A stretch of DNA of 13,385 nt from Nitrososphaerota archaeon (GCA_013378385.1 JACAFS010000028.1:1-13385); one strand, 5' to 3'. Shown: positions 1 through 12,589, counted from the stretch's first letter. Translations and numbers: made by a program. The notes: generated by a model not told the origin, from the letters alone.

Positions 1-450
1 AAGGTGGCCGGTTCTGGATTTATTAATTCTAAAACAGAATTGGATTATTTAATTAAACAGGGCATCTCTGCAATTCTTACACTGACAACTAGTTCTTTGA
101 GCGATGAAGTCATTTCCGATGATTCTGTTACATACAAACATATACCTATTGTAGATCATTCATTGCCTTCTATCAATAATCTTGTAGACTCTGTTACATT
201 CATAAATGAATGCATGTCAAATAACAAACCTGTTGTAGTTCATTGCAGAGCTGGTATTGGTAGAACCGGAACTGTTCTTGGAGCACTACTTATTACCTCG
301 GGAATGTCTGTTGAAAGTTCTGTCAAGGAAGTACGAAAAAAACGTCCTGGTATTGCCGGGTTTAGAAAATCCATAGAATCTCAGCAAATTACATCATTAA
401 CTGAATATTTTGATTATATGAATCGCCAAGGTAATGAAGATGAAAATTAA
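1..450 (+). CDS. Atypical dual-specificity / protein-tyrosine phosphatase (HCX5R family), probably truncated at its 5' end by the window edge
   Basis: The catalytic P-loop VHCRAGIGRTGT matches HCxxGxxR(S/T). VRKKRPGI follows it, as in small archaeal PTPs. The general-acid region is IPIVDHSLP. The frame is open back to base 1 (aag before the GTG at 4). The N-terminal AGSGF aligns, from memory, about 8-10 residues inside Sulfolobus-type PTPs, so the true start is likely upstream of the window. Confidence 0.8.
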   Translation, partial: KVAGSGFINSKTELDYLIKQGISAILTLTTSSLSDEVISDDSVTYKHIPIVDHSLPSINNLVDSVTFINECMSNNKPVVVHCRAGIGRTGTVLGALLITSGMSVESSVKEVRKKRPGIAGFRKSIESQQITSLTEYFDYMNRQGNEDEN

Positions 451-934
451 ATTTTTATCAAAGCGTGAAATAAATTCTCTAGTCGAGAAATTAATTGCTA
501 TTTCTCTAATTTCCGATACTCCGAAAATTAAACAAATCAAATCTTTTGAATTAAACGATGAAATTGAGATTCTCTCGTCAAGTAATTTTATTCTTGTTAG
601 GAATCAAGATGAATTATTTCCATTCCTGCAAGATTCTGATACAATATCCTCACTTCCTAAAATTGTTGTAGATAAAGGAGCAATTCCATTTGTTTGCAAA
701 GGCGCAAATATTATGAGGCCTGGAATAAAAGAACTTCCTGATAATTTCTCAAAAGGCGACCTTGTAGTTATTTCCGAGGAAGTTCATAACCAAAATCTCG
801 CTATAGGTAAAACTCTAAATTCTTCTGAAGAATTACTTGTTCTTGATAAGGGGATGGTCATTCAAAATCTTCATTTTGTAGGCGACTATGTCTGGAATTC
901 CTGTAAGGAACTTAATCTTTCTCTTAATGACTAA
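434..934 (+). CDS. PUA-domain RNA-binding protein (archaeal MCT-1/Tma20-like, COG2016-type)
   Basis: 166 aa. The C-terminal half has the PUA signature VDKGAIPFVCKGANIMRPGI, then VVISEE and LAIGK. Size and pre-PUA plus PUA layout are typical of archaeal family members. The ATG at 434 overlaps the phosphatase gene by 17 nt. Confidence 0.7.
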   Translation: MKMKIKFLSKREINSLVEKLIAISLISDTPKIKQIKSFELNDEIEILSSSNFILVRNQDELFPFLQDSDTISSLPKIVVDKGAIPFVCKGANIMRPGIKELPDNFSKGDLVVISEEVHNQNLAIGKTLNSSEELLVLDKGMVIQNLHFVGDYVWNSCKELNLSLND

Positions 935-937
935 CTA

Positions 938-945
938 TTTTTTTT
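938..945 (+). terminator. Oligo-T tract (T8) 3 nt after the PUA gene stop; candidate archaeal intrinsic terminator
   Basis: The TAA stop at 932..934 is followed by cta and then tttttttt. Archaeal RNA polymerase terminates at oligo-T runs. The flanking A/T-rich tttaaattaataa (about 943..955) could also serve as the TATA element for the next gene. Confidence 0.4.
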
Positions 946-978
946 AAATTAATAAGTGATGGGTCCATATTATTTTCA

Positions 979-1275
979 TTGTCTTCATTAAAAATCGACA
1001 AAAAATCAATCGGCAAAGATCAACAAATGTATCTTAAAGCAATACCATTGAAAAATCTCGATCAAATAGCAACAATTAAAGATGAAGTCTCTCAAAACAT
1101 GATTGTAATATTGAGAATTACTCCTATAGCACAAAAAAATGTCCAAGAACTTAAAAAAGCCATTGAAGAACTATATGGATATGTGTCTTCCATTGGCGGA
1201 GATATTGTAAGACTTGGAGATGAAAGAGTTGTACTTACTCCTCCTGGTGTAAAAATCTGGAGAGGCCTATCTTAA
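979..1275 (+). CDS. sepF: DUF552 / SepF-like small protein
   Basis: YLKAIPLKNLDQIATIKDEV..MIVILRITPIAQKNVQELKKAIEELYGYVSSIGGDIVRLGDERVVLTPPGVKIW matches the archaeal DUF552/SepF core pattern as I remember it. That pattern is a conserved strand, the partner loop, then GGDI.RLG..R.VLTP..V.I. The start is ambiguous: TTG at 979 (98 aa) or the first ATG at 1027 (82 aa). Confidence 0.55.
   Translation: MSSLKIDKKSIGKDQQMYLKAIPLKNLDQIATIKDEVSQNMIVILRITPIAQKNVQELKKAIEELYGYVSSIGGDIVRLGDERVVLTPPGVKIWRGLS
1251..1255 (-). terminator. T5 run on the minus strand 17-21 nt downstream of the aCPSF1 stop, embedded in the opposing SepF-like codons
   Basis: Plus-strand aaaaa at 1251..1255 reads ccagatttttac on the minus strand. 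It is the only oligo-T run available to the psmB-aCPSF1 transcript, because the convergent genes overlap. Weak evidence. Confidence 0.25.
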
Positions 1276-3185
1276 ACTAGCTTGATTGCTTCTTGAACTT
1301 CGGGTCTATGCGTTCTTATTCTGTAAATTCTTGATATTGAATTCGCTAAATTCTCAACCTTTGTATGCTCTCCATGATTGATTATTACATTTCTTAATTT
1401 AGGCCTGAGTTTTCCAACAAATCTAATTAGTTGATTATAATCTGAATGTCCACTAAAACCATCGATCTTTTCTTTTGGACATTTTATATCTACAATCTTA
1501 ATCTTTCCATCTTGATCAACTATACTTGCTTGATTCGCTCCATCCATTATTCTTCTTCCTAATGTTCCTGCGATCTGATACGATACAAAAATTAATTTAT
1601 TCTTCTCAATTGGGGCTAATTCTTCAAAGTATCTCATTACTGGCCCTCCTTCTAACATTCCCGAAGTTGCCATAATTATTGACGGTTCATCTCTTAGCAC
1701 CTCCGCTCTTTTACTATGATGATCTATTACTGTGAAATATTCACTTTGGAATGGATTACCTTGACCTCTTGCAATACTATTCTTTAAATCACGACTTAAA
1801 AATTCTGTTGACGCTACATGTATTGCAGTTGCTTCTGAAATCATTCCCTCAAGATAAATAGGACATTCGATTAATTTCTTTTCACGCATCTGCTGATCTA
1901 ATACTAACATTATTTCCTGTGCCCTTCCAACTGCAGGACTTGGAATCAATACTTTGCCTCCCTTTTCTAATGTTGAATTTATTGAATTTACTAAATTTGA
2001 CTCCATTTGGTCTCTTGTAGGCATCATATCTGCTTTTCCACCATACGTACTTTCCATGATTAGAGTTTCTACCCTTGGATAGTTCCAAATAGTCTCATCA
2101 AAAAGTTTTGTTTTTGCGAATTTAAAATCTCCTGTGTAGAGAATATTGTGCAGACCTTCTCCAATGTGCAGATGTGAAGTTGCAGAGCCTAATATGTGCC
2201 CTGCATTGTTAAGAACTAATTTGATATCGGGAGATATGTCTGTAACCAATCCATATGGCAATGTAATTGTATGTTGAATCATTTTTCTTACATCTCTTCC
2301 TTCATACAATACTTGTGAACCCTCATGAGAATTGATCTTTACATAATCATTGTGTAGTAATGCCATCAATGATAATGTTGGATCTGTACAGTATACTGGC
2401 CCTCTGTATCCATATTTGAATAATACTGGTAGATATCCTGAATGATCTAAGTGCGCATGTGATATTACTACTGCGTCTAAGTCATCCATGTCGAAATCAG
2501 CCCAATCTAATCTTGGGTATGAATCCCATGTATTTCTAGCATTGGGCAGTATTCCACAGTCTAAAAGAATCTTACTTTCTGGAGTTGTAAGCAACATACA
2601 AGATCTTCCCACTTGGTTGAATCCTCCCAAACTCTTCAGAGTAACATTCGACGCTTGAGATAATTTTGGCCTGAATATTTCTTCTCCTACTTGTCTGTAG
2701 AACTCACTTCTAGCTTCTGATTCAGCTTGTTTAACATAATATATCGTCTTTATACTTGTTGATGGCAAATCCGACCCTTTTTTCACTATGACTTTCCAAC
2801 CAATATCTGCAGATAGTTTATGTAAATTAACTTCTGGATTATTTGTTAATTTTTGTGGCTCTAAAGCTTCTATAATTACTTCGCCAAGCGCATCGTCATA
2901 ATATATATTTCCTAATCCTACATCTTCTGCTATTGAATTTTTTAATATTTCTGTTGCATCATTTTCTTTTTTTCTAATTGATTTATCCGTTCTAATTACT
3001 AATCTTCTTTTTACAGTGTTTACAATGTCTGAAATTATGTAATTATTACTAGCTAAAAATTCGTAATTTTTTGTATAGATTGATATTCTTGGCCCTTCAT
3101 ATTCTATACGTGTGATTTCTGCTTCTGCAGGTAATGATTTTAATATTGTCGTCATTAATTCCTGTGATTTACTCATCACTGCCAT
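1272..3185 (-). CDS. fttA: aCPSF1 / FttA: archaeal CPSF73-like beta-CASP ribonuclease with N-terminal KH domains
   Basis: There is a metallo-beta-lactamase motif, VVISHAHLDHSGYLP. An N-terminal KH-like region of about 180 aa and a C-terminal beta-CASP region (GFSGHSDYNQL, INHGE) are present, and the length fits. The track ORF extends to 3233, but the ATG at 3185..3183 (MAVMSKSQ...) sits 1 nt after the psmB TAA stop (3189..3187). This removes a 47-nt overlap, so I prefer 3185. Confidence 0.9.
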   Translation of the reverse strand: MAVMSKSQELMTTILKSLPAEAEITRIEYEGPRISIYTKNYEFLASNNYIISDIVNTVKRRLVIRTDKSIRKKENDATEILKNSIAEDVGLGNIYYDDALGEVIIEALEPQKLTNNPEVNLHKLSADIGWKVIVKKGSDLPSTSIKTIYYVKQAESEARSEFYRQVGEEIFRPKLSQASNVTLKSLGGFNQVGRSCMLLTTPESKILLDCGILPNARNTWDSYPRLDWADFDMDDLDAVVISHAHLDHSGYLPVLFKYGYRGPVYCTDPTLSLMALLHNDYVKINSHEGSQVLYEGRDVRKMIQHTITLPYGLVTDISPDIKLVLNNAGHILGSATSHLHIGEGLHNILYTGDFKFAKTKLFDETIWNYPRVETLIMESTYGGKADMMPTRDQMESNLVNSINSTLEKGGKVLIPSPAVGRAQEIMLVLDQQMREKKLIECPIYLEGMISEATAIHVASTEFLSRDLKNSIARGQGNPFQSEYFTVIDHHSKRAEVLRDEPSIIMATSGMLEGGPVMRYFEELAPIEKNKLIFVSYQIAGTLGRRIMDGANQASIVDQDGKIKIVDIKCPKEKIDGFSGHSDYNQLIRFVGKLRPKLRNVIINHGEHTKVENLANSISRIYRIRTHRPEVQEAIKLV

Positions 3186-3186
3186 T

Positions 3187-3858
3187 TTATTTTCTACCAG
3201 AAAGATCTTTGAGTATTTCTTGTTTCTCTTCAAGTGAATATTCTTTTAGAATGTCTTTTTTTATTGTAACGATATTTAGGCCATCTCCTGTTCCTGAATT
3301 TCTTAAAATAGCCCCATAAACCGCTCTTATAGCAATCGGTAAAGCTTCATCTACACTTAATGCTTGTTTAAATTCACTCTCAAGTATTCCATATGCAACG
3401 GGAGATCCACTTCCAGTTGAATAATATTCTTCTTTTGTTAGTGTTCCAAACATGTCTATGTTGTATAATTGAGGCCCATCCATATCTACTCCGCCTACTA
3501 AGATGTCTGCATAATATGGCGATACTTGATGATTTGCTGAGAAAAATAAATTTGATGTTAATCTTGCTGCCGATGATATTGGTAATTTCTGAAATTTTTC
3601 CAATTTAAAAATATTAGACTGATACTTTAATTGATCAACTACATATTGAGCATCCGCAACACCGCCCGCAATTGTTAATGCACAATGATCATCAATTACT
3701 GCAATCTTGTTTACTGTTCTACTTGCAATATAATATCCCATTGAAGCACGCGTATCGGTCGTCAATACAATTCCATCACTGCATACTAGACCTACGGTGG
3801 TTGTGCCATGAACTTGATTCTTTATTTCGTTTTCTTTATACAATAGAATAATCTCCAA
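3187..3858 (-). CDS. psmB: 20S proteasome beta subunit with short propeptide
   Basis: The propeptide ends ...NQVHG and is followed by the catalytic N-terminal TTTVGLVCSDGIVLTTDTRAS. Length (223 aa) and the remaining sequence are typical of archaeal PsmB. The first canonical start in the ORF is TTG at 3858..3856; there is no in-frame ATG before the Thr1 site. Confidence 0.92.
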   Translation of the reverse strand: MEIILLYKENEIKNQVHGTTTVGLVCSDGIVLTTDTRASMGYYIASRTVNKIAVIDDHCALTIAGGVADAQYVVDQLKYQSNIFKLEKFQKLPISSAARLTSNLFFSANHQVSPYYADILVGGVDMDGPQLYNIDMFGTLTKEEYYSTGSGSPVAYGILESEFKQALSVDEALPIAIRAVYGAILRNSGTGDGLNIVTIKKDILKEYSLEEKQEILKDLSGRK

Positions 3859-4023: not shown

Positions 4024-4803
4024 GTGTTGAGTGCGTCTGTAAATTCTATTTTACTTCAGGTTGTTCTTATATCTGTAGCTATTTTGACAAGTTCTTTTGT
4101 TGTATTGAATTATCCTGAACCAAAACCTCCAGATCCAGAGTTATTGCCTATGCATGCTATCACTATTGAAACCTGGACTCATGATAAAAATATTGGAGAG
4201 AGATATGTGACTACTCCTACTTCTGGAATTAATGTTGTGTTCTATTTCTGGAATGATATCGGTGCAACTGATTCAATTGCAGTAACTGGATCTACTAATG
4301 GAACTGGCCAAGTTACCGTTCTTGTTGAAGAAGGAACTTATGATTTAAAAATTGGAGAATGGACTACTGAAACCTTAGACATTTTTGAGAATATTACAAT
4401 TAGATCCGACCACTATGACCTGGAAATACGCCCTAATTCAATTGAAATAGAAGCATTATCTGCAAGTTGGCAAGTTACATCTGATGATATAATTTTTGTA
4501 TCTTATACTAGTACTTTTGATTTTGAAGTTAATTTAGATTCAATAAAGATGTCCGGCCTTGAATTGAATAATGTTGCCTGTGAACTTACTGACGATGCAG
4601 AAGCTGCAGTTCCTGTTGGCGGACCTGACGATCTATATGCATCGGGTAATAATTGTGAATTAGATGCATTATTGTTTCCATATTCTGACTGGTCTGACAG
4701 TTTTCGAATTCCTGCAGGAATAACTATTCCTTGGTCAGTAGCTAAACTCAATCCAGAGGTTGTTCTAAATGTTTCTTATACGGAGACTGGTGTCGATGAG
4801 TGA
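4024..4803 (+). CDS. Hypothetical surface protein: N-terminal TM anchor, Pro-rich linker, beta-rich ectodomain (carboxypeptidase-regulatory/Ig-like feel)
   Basis: The hydrophobic segment ILLQVVLISVAILTSSFVVL is followed by PEPKPPDPELLP. The rest is acidic and rich in Thr, Ser and Val, with strand-like periodicity (VTGSTNGTGQVTVLVEEGTYDLKIG). The start is GTG 4024 or TTG 4027, after GGGGAG. This is the first gene of the co-directional cluster. I recognise no family. Confidence 0.6.
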   Translation: MLSASVNSILLQVVLISVAILTSSFVVLNYPEPKPPDPELLPMHAITIETWTHDKNIGERYVTTPTSGINVVFYFWNDIGATDSIAVTGSTNGTGQVTVLVEEGTYDLKIGEWTTETLDIFENITIRSDHYDLEIRPNSIEIEALSASWQVTSDDIIFVSYTSTFDFEVNLDSIKMSGLELNNVACELTDDAEAAVPVGGPDDLYASGNNCELDALLFPYSDWSDSFRIPAGITIPWSVAKLNPEVVLNVSYTETGVDE

Positions 4804-5224
4804 TCCTTTTACTGAACTGATTATCTTACTAAGACCATATAACACTGTATTGGCTGCAGGTCTGTCTATTCTTTTGCTTTCTGAATTCCTTCTATTCCGT
4901 AATAATATTGTCAGAGAAAAAATTGTTAAACAAAAGATTCAATTTACTAAAAAATACGATGAAAAGTTTCTTAAATTATATAAAACACTGAAAGTATCTG
5001 CTTTTACATCTGGTCTGGATCAAAGAGATTCTTATACTATAAGAGAACTAACCGAATTTCTCATTGGTAAAAATCCTGCAGATGCCGACATTCTTCATTC
5101 TATTCTTTCTTCAATGGAGAAATACGCTTACGGTAATCAGGAAATAGATAAATCTGGCTATAATCTTATTTCTAAATGGATGTCTAATCAAAAAACTTCT
5201 AGTTTAGCGAGGGCGAGAATATGA
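4796..5224 (+). CDS. Small single-pass membrane protein with DUF4129-like cytoplasmic helical domain
   Basis: I prefer the ATG at 4796 (MSDPF...), which overlaps the upstream stop in ATGAGTGA. The track start at 4769 would lie deep in the previous gene. The TM segment is TVLAAGLSILLLSEFLLF. The tail FLKLYKTLKV..GLDQRDSYTIRELTEFL....ADILHSILSSMEKYAYGNQEI follows the DUF4129 pattern as I remember it: a short helix, then T-x-R-E, then a terminal E..(R/K)Y(A)YG. Confidence 0.5.
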   Translation: MSDPFTELIILLRPYNTVLAAGLSILLLSEFLLFRNNIVREKIVKQKIQFTKKYDEKFLKLYKTLKVSAFTSGLDQRDSYTIRELTEFLIGKNPADADILHSILSSMEKYAYGNQEIDKSGYNLISKWMSNQKTSSLARARI

Positions 5225-6192
5225 TAACTGAAATTAAAGATATATCTGATATTCAAAAAGCAGCAAATGCACTTGAAGCTGAAATTTCACAATATGTTGT
5301 TGGATGGCCTAATGTTATCAAGTTTCTAGCTATTGGCGTATTTACTGGTGGCCATATACTTATCGAAGGAGTTCCTGGAACTGCAAAAACATATCTTGCT
5401 AAAATCTTCTCTGATACTATAAATCTATCTTTTCGTAGAATTCAATCTACTCCTGATTTGATGCCATCTGATATTACCGGTTCACATATTTTTAATGTAA
5501 AGACTCTTGAATTCGATTTTCACGCAGGACCTATTTTCTCTAACATCGTTCTTATGGATGAAATTAATCGTGCTCCGCCAAAGACCCAATCTGCATTGCT
5601 TGAAGTTATGCAAGAAGGACAAGTAACAATTGACGGTAACACCACTCAACTTGAACAACCATTTATGATAATAGCTACCAAGAATCCAATTGAATTTGCA
5701 GGTACATTTCCTTTACCTCCTGCACAGTTAGATCGATTCATGGCACGTTTAATCATGAACTATCCTTCTAAGGATGCATGGATTGACATACTTGAAAAGA
5801 AAAATCAACGCGGCGAATCTGTAGAAGTCGAACAGGTTCTTGACGCATCCTCTGTAATTTCTGCACGAAAGTTAATTCAAGATCAAGTTAGTTTAGATGA
5901 CAACGTTTTAAGTTTTATTTCAAATTTGTGTAACACAACTAGAGATAATTCTCGTATCATACTTGGAGCAAGCCCTACTGCTTCGGTTTCTCTCCTCAAT
6001 GCATCAAGAGGTTATGCAGCAATAATTCGAGGAAGTGACAAGGTTACTACCGAAGATGTAAAGGCCGTTGCATTCGATGTTCTTAACCATCGTTTAGTAA
6101 TTCGTGATCTTGAAGAAGGTCAGGATACTAAAGATTATGGAATAACTAAAATTAATGATCTACTACAATCCAGTATGGAGTCTATACAGTGA
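5221..6192 (+). CDS. moxR: MoxR-family AAA+ ATPase, paralog 1
   Basis: Walker A is GVPGTAKT, Walker B is VLMDEINRA, and the sensor-1 region is IIATKNP. AQLDRF carries the Arg finger. RIQSTPDLMPSDITG is the MoxR-specific motif. The lid motif is GASPTAS (Thr where the family has Arg). The ATG overlaps the upstream stop (ATGA). Confidence 0.9.
   Translation: MITEIKDISDIQKAANALEAEISQYVVGWPNVIKFLAIGVFTGGHILIEGVPGTAKTYLAKIFSDTINLSFRRIQSTPDLMPSDITGSHIFNVKTLEFDFHAGPIFSNIVLMDEINRAPPKTQSALLEVMQEGQVTIDGNTTQLEQPFMIIATKNPIEFAGTFPLPPAQLDRFMARLIMNYPSKDAWIDILEKKNQRGESVEVEQVLDASSVISARKLIQDQVSLDDNVLSFISNLCNTTRDNSRIILGASPTASVSLLNASRGYAAIIRGSDKVTTEDVKAVAFDVLNHRLVIRDLEEGQDTKDYGITKINDLLQSSMESIQ
5965..6096 (+). 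repeat. Near-identical nucleotide tract shared with paralog 2 (copy A)
   Basis: 132 nt with 6 mismatches against 6937..7068. The core 5992..6096 against 6964..7068 is 103/105 identical. This was hand-aligned codon by codon. Confidence 0.85.
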
Positions 6193-6195
6193 TTT

Positions 6196-7170
6196 ATGAT
6201 GACCGATAATATTAATTCACTTTCTGATATTACAAAAATGTCTGAAGATATCCGTTCTGAGGTCAATAAGTCAATTGTCGGTCTCACTAATCATATTGAT
6301 ACTCTTACCTTGTCTCTATTGACAGGTGGACATGTCTTACTTGAGGGATTACCTGGTACTGCGAAAACATTTTTGGCCGTATCCTTTTCAAATACATTGT
6401 CCCTTGAGAACAATCGTATTCAATCCACTCCTGATATGATGCCTGGTGATGTAACGGGCACTAGAATTTACAACCCTAAAACTCTTGAATTCGATTTTCA
6501 CGCAGGACCTATATTTGCTAATATGGTTATTGTCGACGAAATTAATCGTGCTCCTCCTCGAACACAAGCTGCTTTTCTTGAAGCAATGCAAGAAGGGCAA
6601 GTTACTGTTGATGGAGAAACATCAATATTAGACCAACCATTTATGGTTCTTGCAACTAAAAATCCCCTTGAATACGAAGGAACTTTTCCATTATCTCCAA
6701 CACAATTGGATCGTTTTATGTTCCGTATTAATCTTAATTACCCAACTCTGGACGAAGAGATCGAAATTCTTCGTAATAAAACTAAATCTTTAGATTCTTC
6801 TAGTCGGATAATCTCTAAAGATCAAATTCTCCAGGCTCGAAAATTCCTTATTGATAATATGTCAGTTGACGATGGAATTTCTGAATATATTTCCAGCATC
6901 GTTCAATCTACAAGAACACAAGAAGGTATAATTATTGGAGCAAGCCCTACTGCTGCTGTATCCCTCCTCAATGCATCAAGAGGTCATGCAGCAATAATTC
7001 GAGGAAGTGACAAGGTTACTACCGAAGATGTAAAGGCCGTTGCATACGATGTTCTTAACCATCGTTTATTGATAAAACAATCTGATATTGCCGATTCAGG
7101 CACTGATGCCGAATCAAGTAATACTGCAGAAAAAATTATTACTGATATCATTCAATCTGGAGGCACCTAA
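6196..7170 (+). CDS. moxR: MoxR-family AAA+ ATPase, paralog 2
   Basis: Walker A is GLPGTAKT and Walker B is VIVDEINRA. Other motifs are LATKNP, TQLDRF and RIQSTPDMMPGDVTG. The lid motif is GASPTAA. The gene starts 3 nt after the paralog 1 stop. Confidence 0.9.
   Translation: MMTDNINSLSDITKMSEDIRSEVNKSIVGLTNHIDTLTLSLLTGGHVLLEGLPGTAKTFLAVSFSNTLSLENNRIQSTPDMMPGDVTGTRIYNPKTLEFDFHAGPIFANMVIVDEINRAPPRTQAAFLEAMQEGQVTVDGETSILDQPFMVLATKNPLEYEGTFPLSPTQLDRFMFRINLNYPTLDEEIEILRNKTKSLDSSSRIISKDQILQARKFLIDNMSVDDGISEYISSIVQSTRTQEGIIIGASPTAAVSLLNASRGHAAIIRGSDKVTTEDVKAVAYDVLNHRLLIKQSDIADSGTDAESSNTAEKIITDIIQSGGT
6937..7068 (+). repeat. Near-identical nucleotide tract shared with paralog 1 (copy B)
   Basis: See copy A. 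Both differences in the 105-nt core are nonsynonymous (tat/cat Y/H and ttc/tac F/Y). Confidence 0.85.
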
Positions 7171-7172
7171 TT

Positions 7173-8156
7173 ATGATTAACTCTTTGAAATCTACTGACG
7201 ACATTAAAAATCTTAGAGATTCACTCAAGACGGAGATTGGAAAACATGTTGTAGGACTTGATAATATTGTTGATTCATTAATAATCTCAATACTTGTTGG
7301 AGGCCATGTTCTTATCGAGGGATTTCCTGGCACAGGTAAGACCTTAATGGCTAATTTATTCAGTAAATCTATAGAATCTACTTCGAATAGAATTCAATCT
7401 ACTTCTGACCTAATGCCATCTGATATAACCGGTACTCGTATTTACAATCCTAAAGAACGAGAATTTGAATTCCGTTCCGGTCCTATATTCTCTAATTTTG
7501 TTATTGTCGACGAAATTAATCGTGCTCCTCCTAAGTCACAATCCGCTTTATTGGAATGTATGCAAGAAAGACAAGTTAGTGTTGAAGGCATGACTAGAAA
7601 AATGGACGAACCATTTATTGTTCTTGCAACTAAAAATTCTATCGAACTAGAAGGCACTTATCCTCTTCCAGAAGCACAATTAGATAGATTCTTATTCAGA
7701 TTAATTATTGATTATCCTGATGCAGCAAGTGAGGCAGAAATAATCAGACGTAAGATTGGTCCATCTGTTGAACTACATCCTATAGTTTCAAAACAAGCAA
7801 TTCTTGAAGGAAAAGATATGATTCATACAGGTATTAATGCAGAGAAAAACGTTCTCGAGTATATTTCTTCAATAGTTCAAAACACTTCAAATATTCCTAA
7901 AGTCACTCTTGGCGCAAGTCCACGTGCATCTGTCGCTTTATTGTACGCATCTAAAGGCTATGCAGCTGTTACTGAAGGTCGTTCATATGTAATTCCTGAC
8001 GATGTCAAAGCTGTCGCATTTGATGTACTTAATCATCGATTAATCTTACAACAGAATGCACTTCTTGATCTAGATGACGGTGATAGTAATTCTGCTACCG
8101 AATATCTGAGAAAATTAATCAAGGGCTGTATAGACGAAGTAATTGTTCCAGTTTGA
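7173..8156 (+). CDS. moxR: MoxR-family AAA+ ATPase, paralog 3 (most canonical motifs)
   Basis: Walker A is the canonical GFPGTGKT and Walker B is VIVDEINRA. Other motifs are LATKNS, the canonical LPEAQLDRF, and the lid motif GASPRAS followed by EGRSYVIPDDVKAVA, which matches the family consensus GRdyV.PdDV. GGAGG lies at 7159..7163, 9 nt upstream of the ATG. Confidence 0.9.
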   Translation: MINSLKSTDDIKNLRDSLKTEIGKHVVGLDNIVDSLIISILVGGHVLIEGFPGTGKTLMANLFSKSIESTSNRIQSTSDLMPSDITGTRIYNPKEREFEFRSGPIFSNFVIVDEINRAPPKSQSALLECMQERQVSVEGMTRKMDEPFIVLATKNSIELEGTYPLPEAQLDRFLFRLIIDYPDAASEAEIIRRKIGPSVELHPIVSKQAILEGKDMIHTGINAEKNVLEYISSIVQNTSNIPKVTLGASPRASVALLYASKGYAAVTEGRSYVIPDDVKAVAFDVLNHRLILQQNALLDLDDGDSNSATEYLRKLIKGCIDEVIVPV

Positions 8157-8162
8157 TTTAAT

Positions 8163-9395
8163 ATGAAGAAACATATTCGACTTCTTATTGGTTTCTTTGG
8201 ATTGATGACTATGTGTAGTCTGGCTTTATTGCCTAATGCTACTCTTGCTATGCTTTCTGTTATGCTTGCTTTGTGCATTAATCTTGTTTTGTTCAAATAC
8301 CTAAAACCATCAAACAATTTCGAGGTTACACGTGTTTTTGATAAATACCAAGTAATGCCTCCTGCTGATATTAATGCTTCATTGGAAATGAAATATAATG
8401 GTAGATTCCCTGCAAACGCATCTGTTGAATTTGATTGTCAAAGTTTAGGTCTAAATATTAACACCGGTACTGTTGTTTTCCAACCTGGTCAAAAATACGA
8501 CATCTCAAAAACTTTTGTCGCAGATCGCCGTGGCGTTCATAAAATCTCAGCCACTAAAGTTGTTGTTAAAGACTGGCTGTTATTATCTGGAATTACTATT
8601 ACATCTAACGACGAAGCAGAAATTCTTGTACTTCCTCACATTTATCCATTCGAAACATCTCCTCAAACATCTGCCGCCGGATTATTGGGAGTTTCATCAG
8701 CAGTTAAACAAGGTAGAAGTAGTGAAGTTTGGGGCATTCGTGATTACCAACCTGGAGATGATTTTAAAATTATTTCATGGAAAGCTATGGCTAAATCTCC
8801 TGATCATAAACCCAAGTCGAAGATTACTGCTGGAGAAGAGGGACAGGCAATTACAATTGTTACTGATATAGGCAAAGACAGCGAACTTCCTAACGGAGAC
8901 CAAATTTCGCTTGATATATCTGCAGATCTTGCAGCATCTTTATCTTATAATTTCATTAAACGTGGAACTCGAACTGGCTTGGTATTGTTTGATACTCGTA
9001 CTCGAGCTGTCTTAAAACCGGCACGTGGCGAAACTCATGTCGATTCATTATTGCGTAATCTTGCAAAAGTACAACCTTCTCAAGATAAGTTCCTTATTAC
9101 AAGTTTTACAAATTCTTATCTAGAACTCTCTGCTTCTGAATTCGGAAATAGTTTCATTCTAATTCTTACTCGTACTGATGATAGATTGATTGAATCATAT
9201 CTGTCAAAGCTGAAATCTAGCCGTGATCTAATTATCATACTGATCTATAACGAAGATAATTATGAGAGGGCACAACAAATACAAAAAACAGTCGAAGAAA
9301 ATGGTGTTCAAATGATTCTTACAAATCATAGTTCTGTACTAGACACAATGAAAAAAATGGAGGAGTGGTCATATGCTACCGTTAAGAGAACTTAG
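8163..9395 (+). CDS. DUF58-family protein (N-terminal TM hairpin, beta-sandwich, degenerate VWA-like C-terminal domain)
   Basis: Two N-terminal hydrophobic helices are present (LLIGFFGLMTMCSLALL and ATLAMLSVMLALCINLVLF). The family signature is EVWGIRDYQPGDDFKIISWKAMAKS, matching (E/D)f.G.R.Y.pGD..r.I.WKa.Ar. The following ITIVTDIGKDS sits where VWA domains carry the DxSxS MIDAS motif, so the site looks degenerate. Position directly after moxR is the canonical arrangement. Confidence 0.85.
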   Translation: MKKHIRLLIGFFGLMTMCSLALLPNATLAMLSVMLALCINLVLFKYLKPSNNFEVTRVFDKYQVMPPADINASLEMKYNGRFPANASVEFDCQSLGLNINTGTVVFQPGQKYDISKTFVADRRGVHKISATKVVVKDWLLLSGITITSNDEAEILVLPHIYPFETSPQTSAAGLLGVSSAVKQGRSSEVWGIRDYQPGDDFKIISWKAMAKSPDHKPKSKITAGEEGQAITIVTDIGKDSELPNGDQISLDISADLAASLSYNFIKRGTRTGLVLFDTRTRAVLKPARGETHVDSLLRNLAKVQPSQDKFLITSFTNSYLELSASEFGNSFILILTRTDDRLIESYLSKLKSSRDLIIILIYNEDNYERAQQIQKTVEENGVQMILTNHSSVLDTMKKMEEWSYATVKRT

Positions 9396-10212
9396 AACAT
9401 ATATTTCTGCACTTTCCATTGCTCCAATCGCTGTAATGATTGCTAATCCTGTCGTACTGAATGCATTTGTATCTTATTTGTCATCTATTGCCTTCTTCAG
9501 CGCATTCGGATTAATCGCTGTATACCTTATGCTTAAACAAATAGGTTTCATCAAATCATTAGGTGCAAATCAACAAGTTTTCTTTGAAAGTTTACTTTTG
9601 GTACTTCCGATTATCATCCCTATGTTTACCGTTCTAACTACTCAAAATCCTGCAGATTTCATCGCTGCATTTCTTGCTTATTTGGTAATAGGAACTGTTG
9701 TTTCTCTTTCTCGTGTTGTTGTTGGAGCTGGTGTCGGGGCATTTGGTAAAGTTCTCTACTTCTTTTTTGCATACATGATGGCATTGATGGTTTATGCAGG
9801 TTGCGTTGCAGGAGCTATTACTGGCGAAACATTCTCCTTATTATTAGCATTCGATCAAATTGCAGGAATAGCAACTTATCTTGGTTATGAAGGACATCCT
9901 ATCGAACTTCCTCTTATTGAATATGTAAGGCTAGGAATGGCATTTGCCATCCCGGGTATTACTTTCTCTGCATTAGCAGCACAAGTGAGATTGTCAGAAG
10001 TTCGTGATAATCCTGGGGCAGAATCAAAAATGGTAAGCTCCTTGCGATCATCTGTAGCACTTCTTACTTTAGGCAGTGCCATATTATTACTTCCAGTTTA
10101 CTTAATTTCTATCGCGATAGTGAATTTCGCTCCATATCTTGTAACAATAATTCCTCCTGTTCTTGTAATGGGATTCATTCTACTTGTATTATATTTCGTG
10201 GAGAGGGACTAA
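9373..10212 (+). CDS. Polytopic integral membrane protein (about 7-8 predicted TM helices), unknown family
   Basis: 279 aa, almost entirely hydrophobic segments separated by short loops. A strong Shine-Dalgarno GGAGGAG lies at 9359..9365, 7 nt before the ATG. The gene overlaps the DUF58 gene by 23 nt. Confidence 0.7.
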   Translation: MLPLRELRTYISALSIAPIAVMIANPVVLNAFVSYLSSIAFFSAFGLIAVYLMLKQIGFIKSLGANQQVFFESLLLVLPIIIPMFTVLTTQNPADFIAAFLAYLVIGTVVSLSRVVVGAGVGAFGKVLYFFFAYMMALMVYAGCVAGAITGETFSLLLAFDQIAGIATYLGYEGHPIELPLIEYVRLGMAFAIPGITFSALAAQVRLSEVRDNPGAESKMVSSLRSSVALLTLGSAILLLPVYLISIAIVNFAPYLVTIIPPVLVMGFILLVLYFVERD

Positions 10213-10213
10213 A

Positions 10214-12247
10214 TTGCGTTCATCAATTATTATTCTCTTGTTATTTGTTTCGACTATTGTATTGTTACCTGTATCATTTTCTCAGGTTGACGATCGTGTA
10301 TGTCCTGCATCTGCCGCTTGTGAAGAACCTTTTGACCCCTCTCAATTGACGAATATGATGCCTGATTTCGCTAATCTTGGTTTTAACGAAGAAAGTATGT
10401 CTATTCCAGCTTCTGGAAGTACTATCGTAGTAGGTCCTGGTGAAGAATTATTTATTCTTGCTGAAAAACAAATAATTATTACATTGGGAGAACCTGGCGA
10501 AGATTTAATGTTCCGTGGAATTGTTCCAGGTCGTCGAATTAATCAATTGGAGTTGCCCGTAGTTGGCGTTGGAGAAACTATGTTGGTTGAATTAACAATG
10601 TTGGAAGTCACCGCAGACGAACTTGCAAATGCTGGTTTTCCAGCTGATAATCCTATATTTGCAGGTATTAATGCTAGAGATGATGTCGATCAGGTTGCTA
10701 ATTGTTTAAGTTTACAAAATCGTATTGAAGGACTCCGTAAAAATATTGGAGAGAGAAATTCAGATATTGTTGATTTACGTAATCAACCAGGCAATTTTCA
10801 AAATCAAACTATCCAAAGACTAATAATAAGAATGCAGAATGACAATGACCGAGATAGAGAACTTCTCCCCACACTTGATGCACAATTTGAAATTCTTCAG
10901 TGTGAACGCGTTCCTAGAGATGAACAGGAAAGACCTGAAGCAAGACCAACAGACCTATCTGAAGAATCATTTCAACGATCACATATATTAGTTGTAGGGG
11001 AAGGCAGTCCTTCTGGATTTATCCCCAATTATCAATTGACTGGCAGTAATCTATTCATGGAAAAATCTGAAACCCTCGAATTAGCAATCCTTGAACCGAC
11101 TGATGGCTTTCATATTATAAGTGGCTCATATGGCGCTATTGAATATCCTAGTGTTATTTCTCCTGGATCTGAATATATAATTAGATACAATAATACCGTT
11201 GAAGATTTTGATCCATCTGGCGAAAGTATTGAATTTGTTCTTGAAACTACAAGAAAGTTGAGAATCGATTCTCATACTGCAGATCTTACTACTAGTATTG
11301 AGAAAAATGGAACAATTGCTTCCACTACACTTAATCTCCCTAATGCTCAAACTGGGTATTTTCAGATAAACATCCCTGAGATAGGCGAATCTGAAAACGG
11401 CGATTCACCATTACAGTATGGCCTACATTTCTTCCATATCCACTCTAATTTCGTAGGAATCGGAACTCTTGACACATATCTTCCAGTTTATGTTGTTCCA
11501 TCTGGGGAGTATAATCTTGTAGGATATTCTATGGCATCTGAACCTGATTTACGTATTAATCTTGCTGATTATGTGCCAAATGCCCCTGAACTTTTCATAA
11601 TTAGTAAATCCAATGACGTAACCACGTTTATTGAATCTCAGGAAATCAACATTCCTGTAGCTGTTATCTCTGTATCTGATAATCTTGGACCAATTAATCT
11701 ATACGAAATTGTTCTCGACGCCGATTTCATTACAAGTTCTTTTGATGGAAAAATGTATGTCTTGGCCAATAGCGCCACTGATACTTTTTCAATATCTAGC
11801 CTGAAAATTTTTAATTTTATCACGACTGATTTTAATATTATTGATAGCACTGACAAAACTAAAACATACAACAATAAATTGGGATTTCCTATTAATGTAG
11901 ATCTCATGCTCGACATCAATACTATTGATATTTCTGTTTTCGATGAATTTGAACAACCATTCATTGACGGTCAAATAATTATACAAAAAGCAGATGAAGA
12001 ATTCACTGCCGACCTTTTGGATATTCCTCGATTAAAGCTTCCCGACGGAAATTATAAAATTACTCATATTGTGGAAGACGAAATAAAATCCGAGCAAGAT
12101 CTATCTATTAGTAGTTCTGGATTGATTCAATTTAATGTTAAAACATTGTTGTTGGAAGATCAAATTCTTACTATTGCAATAATTATAGAATCTATATTGA
12201 TTGCATTCTTCACATTTAGAATAATGTCAAAGTACTTTAAAGGATAA
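10214..12247 (+). CDS. Large secreted/surface protein with N-terminal signal peptide, central charged coiled-coil-like segment, beta-rich body and C-terminal TM anchor; unknown family (BatD-like topology)
   Basis: I prefer the TTG at 10214 (MRSSIIILLLFVSTIVLLPVSFSQ...). It lies 1 nt after the upstream TAA and is preceded by GGAGAGGG at 10200..10207. The track start, TTG 10184, adds 10 non-signal-like residues inside the previous gene. The C-terminus is ILTIAIIIESILIAFFTFRIM followed by SKYFKG. A charged segment runs about NRIEGLRKNIGERNSD...DEQERPEARP. Confidence 0.7.
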   Translation: MRSSIIILLLFVSTIVLLPVSFSQVDDRVCPASAACEEPFDPSQLTNMMPDFANLGFNEESMSIPASGSTIVVGPGEELFILAEKQIIITLGEPGEDLMFRGIVPGRRINQLELPVVGVGETMLVELTMLEVTADELANAGFPADNPIFAGINARDDVDQVANCLSLQNRIEGLRKNIGERNSDIVDLRNQPGNFQNQTIQRLIIRMQNDNDRDRELLPTLDAQFEILQCERVPRDEQERPEARPTDLSEESFQRSHILVVGEGSPSGFIPNYQLTGSNLFMEKSETLELAILEPTDGFHIISGSYGAIEYPSVISPGSEYIIRYNNTVEDFDPSGESIEFVLETTRKLRIDSHTADLTTSIEKNGTIASTTLNLPNAQTGYFQINIPEIGESENGDSPLQYGLHFFHIHSNFVGIGTLDTYLPVYVVPSGEYNLVGYSMASEPDLRINLADYVPNAPELFIISKSNDVTTFIESQEINIPVAVISVSDNLGPINLYEIVLDADFITSSFDGKMYVLANSATDTFSISSLKIFNFITTDFNIIDSTDKTKTYNNKLGFPINVDLMLDINTIDISVFDEFEQPFIDGQIIIQKADEEFTADLLDIPRLKLPDGNYKITHIVEDEIKSEQDLSISSSGLIQFNVKTLLLEDQILTIAIIIESILIAFFTFRIMSKYFKG

Positions 12248-12589
12248 TTATCCGATTTCTGAACCTGCGTTCATTTCATTATCAGTCTGAAGTAATGATA
12301 CTTTGTCTCCATCAATTGAAGCTAGTAGCATCCCTTGTGATTCCACTCCGAATATCTTTCTTGGTTCTAAATTTATTAAAACAATTACTGTTTTATCAAC
12401 TAAATCTTCTAACGAATAATACTTTGCAATTCCCGCAACAATCTGCCTCTCTTCATCACCGATGTCTATTTTCATTTTAATTAATTTATTAGATCCAGTT
12501 ACTGCTTCTGCATTGATTATTTTTCCAACTCTAATTTTTAGTTTAGAAAAATCATCGAAGTTAATTATATCCATGAATCTTTTTTTCAT
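12248..12589 (-). CDS. Stand-alone tRNA-binding OB-fold protein (Trbp111 / CsaA / MetRS C-terminal domain family)
   Basis: DFSKLKIRVGKIINAEAVTGSNKLIKMKIDIGDEERQIVAGIAKYYSLEDLVDKTVIVLINLEPRKIFGVESQGMLLA closely follows the Trbp111/EMAPII-type tRNA-binding domain consensus. An alternative start is Met6, at 12574. Confidence 0.85.
   Translation of the reverse strand: MKKRFMDIINFDDFSKLKIRVGKIINAEAVTGSNKLIKMKIDIGDEERQIVAGIAKYYSLEDLVDKTVIVLINLEPRKIFGVESQGMLLASIDGDKVSLLQTDNEMNAGSEIG

Follow-up and report, generated by a model that had tools for sequence, protein, structure and literature searches.

Three adjacent genes for MoxR-type AAA+ ATPases, referred to below as P1, P2 and P3, lie on a stretch of DNA of 13,385 nucleotides (nt) from a Nitrososphaerota archaeon (GCA_013378385.1 JACAFS010000028.1:1-13385), which is called the window in what follows. 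Sequence comparison indicates that the three paralogs have lost near-invariant residues of the MoxR family in a reciprocal manner, and that none of them retains the full near-invariant set. We lean, by a modest degree, towards reading the three genes as specialised subunits of one membrane-associated MoxR machine, i.e., a mixed hexameric AAA+ ring that works with a single DUF58 partner. Literature searches turned up neither tandem MoxR paralogs nor a MoxR ring of mixed subunits, and this conserved triplet system is apparently undescribed so far.

The action of MoxR ATPases is poorly understood. Heteromeric AAA+ rings as such are common; the studied MoxR examples are rings of identical subunits, which become asymmetric only via nucleotide state and partner. 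If the mixed-ring reading is true, fixed and different subunits would allow roles to be assigned to single ATP sites by mutating one gene, and would give the same access to the post-sensor-1 and lid elements, as Mcm2-7 and the Rpt ring did for their families. The pattern of losses flags two near-invariant but little-discussed MoxR positions, the lid Arg (position 239 in P3) and the LPEAQ Glu, as functionally linked to sensor 2.

Family membership and motifs

An original prediction made on this DNA had called three consecutive full-length MoxR genes of 323, 324 and 327 amino acids (aa), and the corresponding open reading frames (ORFs) are found exactly at 5221-8156:

5221..6192, + strand: MoxR paralog 1 (P1), 323 aa, AAA_3 and AAA_lid_2
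6196..7170, + strand: MoxR paralog 2 (P2), 324 aa, AAA_3 and AAA_lid_2
7173..8156, + strand: MoxR paralog 3 (P3), 327 aa, AAA_3 and AAA_lid_2

All three proteins match Pfam AAA_3 (E 1e-56 to 1e-60, 189-203 bits vs. a cutoff of 27) and AAA_lid_2 (E 1e-13 to 1e-16, 50-59 bits vs. a cutoff of 22.7), in each case far over the threshold, and the closest solved structure is the MoxR protein 2r44 (E 2.5e-73). P1 and P2 share 54-56% of their residues, P1 and P3 46-48%, and P2 and P3 about 49%; the measured identity range of 46-56% agrees with the earlier estimate of roughly half to 60%. An AlphaFold2 (AF2) model of P3, of moderate confidence with a predicted local distance difference test score (pLDDT) of 67, exhibits beta-hairpins at residues 88-101 and 134-143 and the clade-7 fold; its top fold match in the PDB is 2r44 (template-modelling (TM) score 0.76), followed by MCM and RavA. 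A direct sequence search of the PDB gave only weak Cdc6 and ChlI matches, with MCM and BchI unalignable across the lid.

The motifs quoted in the original prediction are all in place:

P1: GVPGTAKT, PLPPAQLDRF, GASPTAS, RGSDKVTTEDV
P2: GLPGTAKT, PLSPTQLDRF, GASPTAA, RGSDKVTTEDV
P3: GFPGTGKT, PLPEAQLDRF, GASPRAS, EGRSYVIPDDV

In P1, the cis motifs are intact (Walker A K56, Walker B D113-E114, sensor-1 N155) and the arginine (R) finger R172 is kept, with Thr253 (nt 5977-5979) at sensor 2, Pro167 in place of the LPEAQ Glu, the lid Arg kept as R241 (nt 5941-5943), and two private changes, E160A and E187W. P2 has intact cis motifs as well, keeping the R finger as R173 and the lid Arg as R240, with Thr252 (nt 6949-6951) at sensor 2; its post-sensor-1 loop reads PLSPTQ, in which the family residues P166, E167 and A168 have become S, P and T, respectively. 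P3 keeps the sensor-2 Arg R251 (nt 7923-7925), E167 and P275, but three other residues are replaced, with Ser239 (nt 7887-7889) at the near-invariant lid Arg, Ser78 at the pore-loop Pro and Ser156 at the Pro adjacent to sensor 1. Six residues (K56, T57, D113, E114, N155 and R172) are invariant across all 27 triplet sequences compared below, and by alignment each of P1, P2 and P3 keeps all the cis elements for ATP binding and hydrolysis (Walker A/B, sensor 1) as well as the trans-acting R finger. The sensor-2 Arg (GxSPR, at the start of lid helix alpha-7), which serves as a criterion of MoxR membership, is present in P3 and replaced in both P1 and P2, which are classed from their sequences as MoxR members by descent that are divergent rather than canonical.

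Reciprocal loss of near-invariant residues

The 27 triplet sequences were compared with two backgrounds, i.e., 77 single-copy loci and the 150 nearest 50%-cluster representatives. The 77 loci (L007-L083) were fished with the exact P2 peptides EAMQEGQV, TPDMMPGD and DRFMFRIN, and conservation inside those peptides is inflated; the 150 representatives are free of this bias. Residue numbers below follow P3.

P1 and P2, R251 to T: 18/18; representatives R in 143/144
P1 and P2, E167 to P/A/V: 18/18; representatives E in 139/150
P1 and P2, P275 (Pro of VxPxDV) to various residues: 18/18; representatives P in 127/143
P3, R239 to S/N: 9/9; representatives R in 141/145
P3, P78 to S/A, pore-loop region: 9/9; representatives P in 138/148
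P3, P156 to A/S, beside sensor 1: 9/9; representatives P in 143/150
P1 only, E187 to W: 8/9; representatives E in 137/150
P1 only, E160 to A: 7/9; representatives E in 105/150
P2 only, P166 to S: 9/9; representatives P in 145/150
P2 only, A168 to T/V/G: 8/9; representatives A in 138/150

P1 and P2 keep R239 as Arg in 18/18 sequences, and R251 is Arg in 77/77 single-copy loci. P3 had earlier been taken as the canonical copy, an assignment that does not hold, given that it has lost R239 in all nine lineages along with P78 and P156 and that the losses are reciprocal. Each copy has its own substitutions in the post-sensor-1 loop (residues 156, 160 and 166-168). The differing elements are those which a subunit offers, besides the R finger, to the ATP site of its neighbour or presumably to the partner. 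Among the 120 nearest database clusters, sensor 2 is Thr in all but a few and Arg in none; the few exceptions, most of which are shorter sequences, gave no match to the GxSP motif with the pattern used. A search of the representative library with P1 found no further Thr-type clades, and the whole triplet clade forms one 50% cluster (P0122).

One further candidate, a change of G133 to K/R as a compensating basic residue specific to P3, was dropped. The position is about 99% Gly in the 77-locus background because the EAMQEGQV peptide was used to fish those loci, whereas the representatives show R in 74, G in 32 and K in 18; in the AF2 model it lies at the far end of helix alpha-3, distant from the nucleotide.

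An improbable explanation of the motif pattern is that P3 is the working hexamer, with P1 and P2 as ATP-binding, slowly hydrolysing adaptors or regulators that form a second stacked ring or caps, similar to BchI/BchD. The shared loss of sensor 2, E167 and P275 in P1 and P2 is consistent with such a division, the same clade offers examples of an active AAA+ protein paired with degenerate paralogs, and NCBIfam reports a weak similarity of the MoxR copies to the Mg-chelatase subunit BchD. However, P3 itself deviates at three near-invariant positions, and strong purifying selection has maintained the R finger, sensor 1 and the Glu of Walker B in P1 and P2, which sets these two apart from typical pseudo-ATPases; nor do they have an extra domain that could act as an adaptor.

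It is also conceivable, if unlikely, that each paralog builds its own homo-hexamer and has its own client, e.g., one of the membrane or surface proteins encoded in the operon, or its own step, with the DUF58 protein shared; in this equally unlikely form the motif changes would tune the ATPase rate or the partner affinity of each ring. All three paralogs have complete cis sites and an R finger, every characterised MoxR is a homo-hexamer (PMC6987120, PMC13036017), and several uncharacterised membrane proteins of the operon could be separate clients. In addition, paralog-specific residues at the N-terminus, the pore loop and the helix-2 insert (GSHIF in P1 vs. GTRIY in P2 and P3; S78 in P3) would fit different substrates. 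However, a ring of P1 or P2 would be without the sensor-2 Arg at six sites, and a ring of P3 would be without R239 at six, both arginines being 97-99% conserved in the family, and reciprocal losses are what is expected when a neighbour buffers each loss.

Sensor 2 and its site of action

Whether the Thr of P1 and P2 is the sensor-2 equivalent was addressed by a test that had been named beforehand. A profile alignment of 98 MoxR sequences with E. coli RavA (hhalign probability 97.4%) places the GASPR Arg on RavA R251 and the LDRF Arg on RavA R170, which are the sensor 2 and the R finger of RavA, respectively, both supplied by the neighbouring monomer (PMC6987120). This bears out the original prediction that two of the three copies carry Thr at sensor 2. 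In the AF2 model, the sensor-2 residue of P3 opens the helix 250-266, and the start of this lid helix is the canonical place of sensor 2 (PMC5039278).

AAA+ proteins of clade 7 have a pre-sensor-2 insert that carries the lid across to the adjacent subunit, whose ATP site is then completed by the sensor 2 and R finger of the first (PMC7973254, PMC6987120, PMC5039278). Since sensor 2 acts in trans in this clade, we infer that the Thr of P1 and P2 would change a neighbour's ATP site rather than their own, altering the site of whichever subunit their lid covers.

The Ala before the Walker A Lys in P1 and P2 had been counted as part of the asymmetry, and it was rejected as such. This Ala is an ordinary family polymorphism, found in 30/77 single-copy MoxRs as well as in 2r44 and RavA, and the P3 of two lineages (L006 and L084) also reads GTAKT; the GTAKT-type Ala is listed as the MoxR form of Walker A (PMC5039278).

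Age and conservation of the triplet

A genome scan with exact P2 peptides was carried out on one genome per prokaryotic species, and the best 80 loci were kept. Among these, three thaumarchaeal metagenome-assembled genomes have three tandem MoxR genes (93%, 57% and 55% identity to P2), and the other 77, from bacteria and other archaea, have a single MoxR gene, in line with the earlier statement that MoxR usually comes as one gene per operon (77/77 other loci). Look-ups of diverged P1 homologs added further loci, including a 1-Mb lake contig and several marine scaffolds. Nine lineages, sampled from marine, lake and groundwater sites, have the whole eight-gene operon described below with its gene order unchanged, and the triplet orthologs diverge down to 55-60% identity. 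A search for P3 homologs gave matches dominated by relatives of 90-99% identity and added no diversity.

In neighbour-joining trees with 200 bootstraps, the triplet forms a clade against the 77 single-copy MoxRs with support of 200/200. Within it, P3 is supported at 200/200, P1 with P2 at 148-165/200, and P1 at 187/200 (seven lineages), or 176/200 on the N-terminal 140 residues (nine lineages); the P2 clade is weaker (110/200) because of gene conversion. The trees thus indicate two duplications before the nine lineages split, the first between Arg- and Thr-type copies and the second between P1 and P2. The ratio of nonsynonymous to synonymous substitution rates (dN/dS) between close relatives is 0.04-0.15 for every copy, and all three copies are under purifying selection. 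The original prediction had allowed that the triplet might be strain-specific; the ordered operon in nine lineages and the fully supported clade show the triplication to be old and conserved.

It is highly improbable that the triplet has no functional meaning, whether as a tandem duplication of recent date, as copies in decay or as an artefact of assembly. Tandem repeats that undergo gene conversion may be of recent origin, and among the related contigs there is a collapsed two-gene version (L093) and a split P2 (L091). However, an identical P1 protein, followed in the same order by P2 and the start of P3, is encoded on three independently assembled contigs, with TARA Oceans data among the sources; nine lineages carry orthologous clades; the synonymous sites of the paralogs are saturated outside the conversion tracts, with the low dN/dS given above; and the searches with the three copies together yielded well over 100 clusters at 90% identity, many of them of TARA origin. 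The host group appears to be abundant and uncultured.

In the locus with the split P2 (L091 7926-8812, a JGI contig), P2 is divided into ORFs of 162 and 106 aa, and P1 is shortened to 305 aa. The split is either a frameshift or sequencing error, or a P2 decaying in one strain.

Gene conversion between P1 and P2

P1 and P2 share a tract of nearly identical nucleotides in the lid:

5954..6101, + strand: conversion tract, P1 copy, lid including GASPTAS...VTTEDV, 93% nt identity to 6926-7073
6926..7073, + strand: conversion tract, P2 copy, 93% nt identity to 5954-6101 over 148 nt

The P1 tract is only 65% identical in nt to the P3 equivalent at 7900-8047, and the synonymous differences per site between P1 and P2 are 0.18 in the tract vs. 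0.69 outside. The original prediction had pointed to the RGSDKVTTEDV motif shared by P1 and P2; the motif is indeed present in both, but it is the product of this conversion tract rather than of independent conservation.

Conversion tracts between P1 and P2 were found in every lineage examined (150-420 nt, 93-100% nt identity), and outside the tracts the genes are about 60-70% identical in nt, with saturated synonymous sites. In the lid region, P1 and P2 share 94-99% nt identity in the window and in L004, and 100% in L005; in L090 (7001-8936) they are 100% identical over about 420 nt, residues about 140-280, and in L084 they are 100% identical over the Walker B region. In lid-only trees, the P1 and P2 of one genome pair with each other (L005 149/200, L090 199/200), whereas the P3 lid is separate (156/200) and distinct in all nine lineages. 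Recombination is frequent enough to have erased the lid difference between P3 and P1/P2, and its persistence in nine lineages argues that the difference is selected. The interchangeable, converted C-terminal halves of P1 and P2 also fit poorly with separately tuned homo-hexameric rings.

Several database clusters suggest further conversion mosaics in natural populations. Among the P1 homologs P0032-P0042 and P0021/P0028, some P2-type clusters are unusually P1-like (62-64% vs. the usual 55-58% identity to P1), and two P1-type clusters are unusually P3-like (about 61% identity to P3).

The mixed-ring proposal

In the proposed mechanism, the three paralogs would co-assemble into a mixed hexamer that acts with the DUF58 protein and the membrane and surface proteins of the operon. 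Because sensor 2 acts in trans in clade 7, such a ring would possess two chemically different kinds of ATP site. The first kind would be closed by a P3 lid and have R251 while lacking R239; the second would be closed by a P1 or P2 lid and have R239 while lacking R251 and E167. A mixed ring would thereby hard-wire an asymmetry of both hydrolysis and DUF58 docking. The VWA partner of NorQ, NorD, is bound at its C-terminus by the post-sensor-1 loop, and a single NorD sits asymmetrically on the NorQ hexamer (PMC13036017). Together with this role of the NorQ loop, the paralog-specific changes in the post-sensor-1 loop suggest that a mixed ring could fix the docking of the DUF58 protein. The reciprocal losses, the conserved gene order, the purifying selection and the retention of all three copies in a seemingly streamlined genome each speak for a hetero-ring, and taken together they tip our judgement slightly in its favour.

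A stricter version is more doubtful, although possible. The triplet could form an obligate hetero-hexamer, the first in the MoxR family, in which R251 (from P3) and R239 (from P1/P2) are divided between paralogs. On the same tentative reading, the individualised post-sensor-1 loops might create a permanent asymmetry that pre-positions the single DUF58 protein, and the ring might, by analogy, be a genetically frozen version of the transient asymmetry of NorQ-NorD and RavA.

As for the place of action, a comparative-genomics study has grouped MoxR/vWA pairs of archaea and associated membrane and surface proteins into putative envelope systems (PMC5898192), a context like that of the present operon, which probably acts on the cell envelope.

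Several points weigh against a mixed ring. Co-assembly is suggested rather than proved; the nine lineages sampled include several that are closely related; and the AF2 monomer of P3 reaches a pLDDT of only 67. No natural fusion between any of these paralogs was found, and AAA+ paralogs encoded in one operon can also make separate homo-oligomers. Thr at sensor 2 need not stop hydrolysis, and classic-clade AAA proteins have no sensor-2 Arg at all and can be active. We know of no established role for R239, E167 or P275 in MoxR. Finally, one locus (L093 1737-3688) has only two MoxR genes, i.e., a P1/P2 hybrid with the N-terminus of P1 and the C-terminus of P2, followed by P3. The joint of this hybrid lies within the 420-nt stretch that is identical between the P1 and P2 of the sister contig L090 (7001-9922), and the locus, at a coverage of 2.5x, could be an assembly collapse or a real unequal crossover. 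If it is real, the distinction between P1 and P2 is dispensable in some strains.

Comparison with known systems

MoxR-proper with DUF58 (CHU_0153, PDB 2r44) resembles the triplet in its AAA_3 and AAA_lid_2 domains, in sequence (39-45% identity) and in its clade-7 fold (TM score 0.76). The bacterial MoxR-DUF58 operons, with their transglutaminase/DUF4129 membrane protein, are also alike, since here too the DUF58 gene lies directly downstream and membrane proteins are encoded, one of them weakly DUF4129-like. The system differs from MoxR-proper in having three ATPase genes instead of one and in that no copy has the full invariant set.

In RavA-ViaA, NorQ-NorD and CbbQ-CbbO, sensor 2 and the R finger act in trans, each subunit completing the ATP site of the one beside it, and one VWA-type partner binds the ring asymmetrically via helix-2 inserts and the post-sensor-1 loop (PMC6987120, PMC13036017). 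The triplet operon likewise has a single partner gene, and the changes that set its paralogs apart are concentrated in the lid and the post-sensor-1 loop. However, asymmetry in those systems arises from nucleotide state in identical subunits, whereas here it would be genetically fixed, and the DUF58 protein is a divergent VWA-like protein whose interaction with MoxR is structurally undescribed.

Mcm2-7, Rpt1-6 and RFC (and dynein and midasin, in which the modules are concatenated) are alike in that old duplications are kept as orthologous sets with catalytic residues distributed unevenly over the interfaces; Mcm2-7, dynein and midasin also belong to clade 7, with a trans-acting sensor 2 (PMC7973254, PMC5039278). 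The Mcm2-7 and Rpt1-6 rings differ in having five or six paralogs rather than three, and the triplet has ongoing gene conversion and is restricted to one archaeal lineage. There is a loose likeness to BchI/BchD (ChlI/ChlD) in the combination of a clade-7 ATPase, a related and catalytically altered paralog, and a VWA domain. In BchD, however, the AAA+ module is fused to the VWA domain, whereas P1 and P2 stand alone beside a separate VWA-like protein, and the degenerate Walker motifs of the BchI/BchD type do not occur in P1 and P2, which keep Walker A/B, sensor 1 and the R finger. The triplet is not a member of the Mcm2-7-type or BchI/BchD families.

A 916-aa protein in the representative library (P0121) carries two complete MoxR modules (AAA_3 and AAA_lid_2 twice) and, at its N-terminus, an FHA domain. 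It would form a covalent tandem-dimer MoxR, a precedent for duplicated MoxR modules in one assembly. Both of its modules keep E167, R239 and R251, i.e., a duplication without reciprocal loss, in a single polypeptide from an unrelated organism. Inteins (Intein_splicing, in one case with LAGLIDADG_3) interrupt the MoxR genes of four other library members (P0123, P0136, P0170 and P0257); the insertion point follows either the sensor-1/post-sensor-1 region, at about residue 165, or an earlier site at about residue 120.

A relation to anti-phage or conflict MoxR-VWA systems was considered and rejected, as PADLOC gave only marginal matches (IetA and mad8, E 3e-5 or weaker, <22 bits). The bpMoxR scores of P1, P2 and P3 are 28-39 bits, far under their AAA_3 scores.

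The host lineage

The window has a GC content of 32-38% (about 35%) and reads as an archaeal chromosome fragment. In one related locus (L092 14400-14972), a gene for a pyrroloquinoline quinone (PQQ)-dependent dehydrogenase lies just past the operon. The low GC content, the marine/TARA source and this neighbour suggest that the window comes from heterotrophic, non-ammonia-oxidising marine Thaumarchaeota, which are described as having small genomes (PMC7300363, PMC13374868). These two papers on the heterotrophic marine lineages make no mention of MoxR. The host genome appears small and streamlined, and the retention of three copies in it argues against redundancy; the operon is one of the host's few conserved multi-paralog systems.

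The eight-gene operon and its surroundings

The three MoxR genes belong to a series of eight closely packed genes on the + strand (4024-12247), of which the other five are as follows:

4024..4803, + strand: operon gene 1, 259 aa, ORF with an N-terminal membrane anchor
4769..5224, + strand: small membrane protein, weakly DUF4129-like, longest ORF 151 aa
8163..9395, + strand: DUF58 protein, 410 aa, N-terminal membrane helices, Pfam DUF58 E 1.1e-14
9373..10212, + strand: polytopic membrane protein, 279 aa, overlapping the end of the DUF58 gene
10184..12247, + strand: large protein, 687 aa, last operon gene, ORF with an N-terminal signal/anchor and a C-terminal membrane helix

By all appearances the eight genes form a single operon, because their junctions consist of an ATGA overlap between the stop of the small membrane protein gene and the start of P1, gaps of 2-6 nt (3 nt between P1 and P2, 2 nt between P2 and P3, and 6 nt between P3 and the DUF58 gene), and two overlaps, the second of them between the start of the 687-aa gene (10184) and the end of the 279-aa gene (10212).

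Operon gene 1 gave no family match in Pfam or NCBIfam, and a counterpart of 257-283 aa occupies the same position in L005, L006, L084, L086, L088, L090 and L092. The small membrane protein, annotated as 142 aa from 4796 in identical contigs (the gene call in L001), matches Pfam DUF4129 under the cutoff (E 8e-4, 19.9 bits vs. 24.8), and a counterpart of 110-163 aa is present in all related loci. The DUF58 gene is the operon's single VWA-like partner gene, as is typical of MoxR operons; its product has no AAA+ domain by Pfam, and it follows P3 directly in every related locus (406-413 aa). The 279-aa polytopic protein had no family match in Pfam and is kept as a counterpart of 279-322 aa in related loci. 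The 687-aa protein is presumably surface-exposed, and related loci have a counterpart of 557-705 aa at the same position, with a convergent tRNA-binding gene next.

Among the other genes of the window are those for a proteasome beta subunit, an aCPSF1-type KH/beta-CASP nuclease, SepF and a PUA protein. Flanking synteny is kept in marine relatives, both upstream (dual-specificity phosphatase, PUA protein, SepF, aCPSF1 nuclease and proteasome beta; window 1-3858) and downstream (the tRNA-binding-domain gene; window 12248-12589). In the lake and groundwater relatives L006 and L084, the operon lies elsewhere, near L44e, S27e, thioredoxin reductase and UDG, with DapA/DapB downstream.

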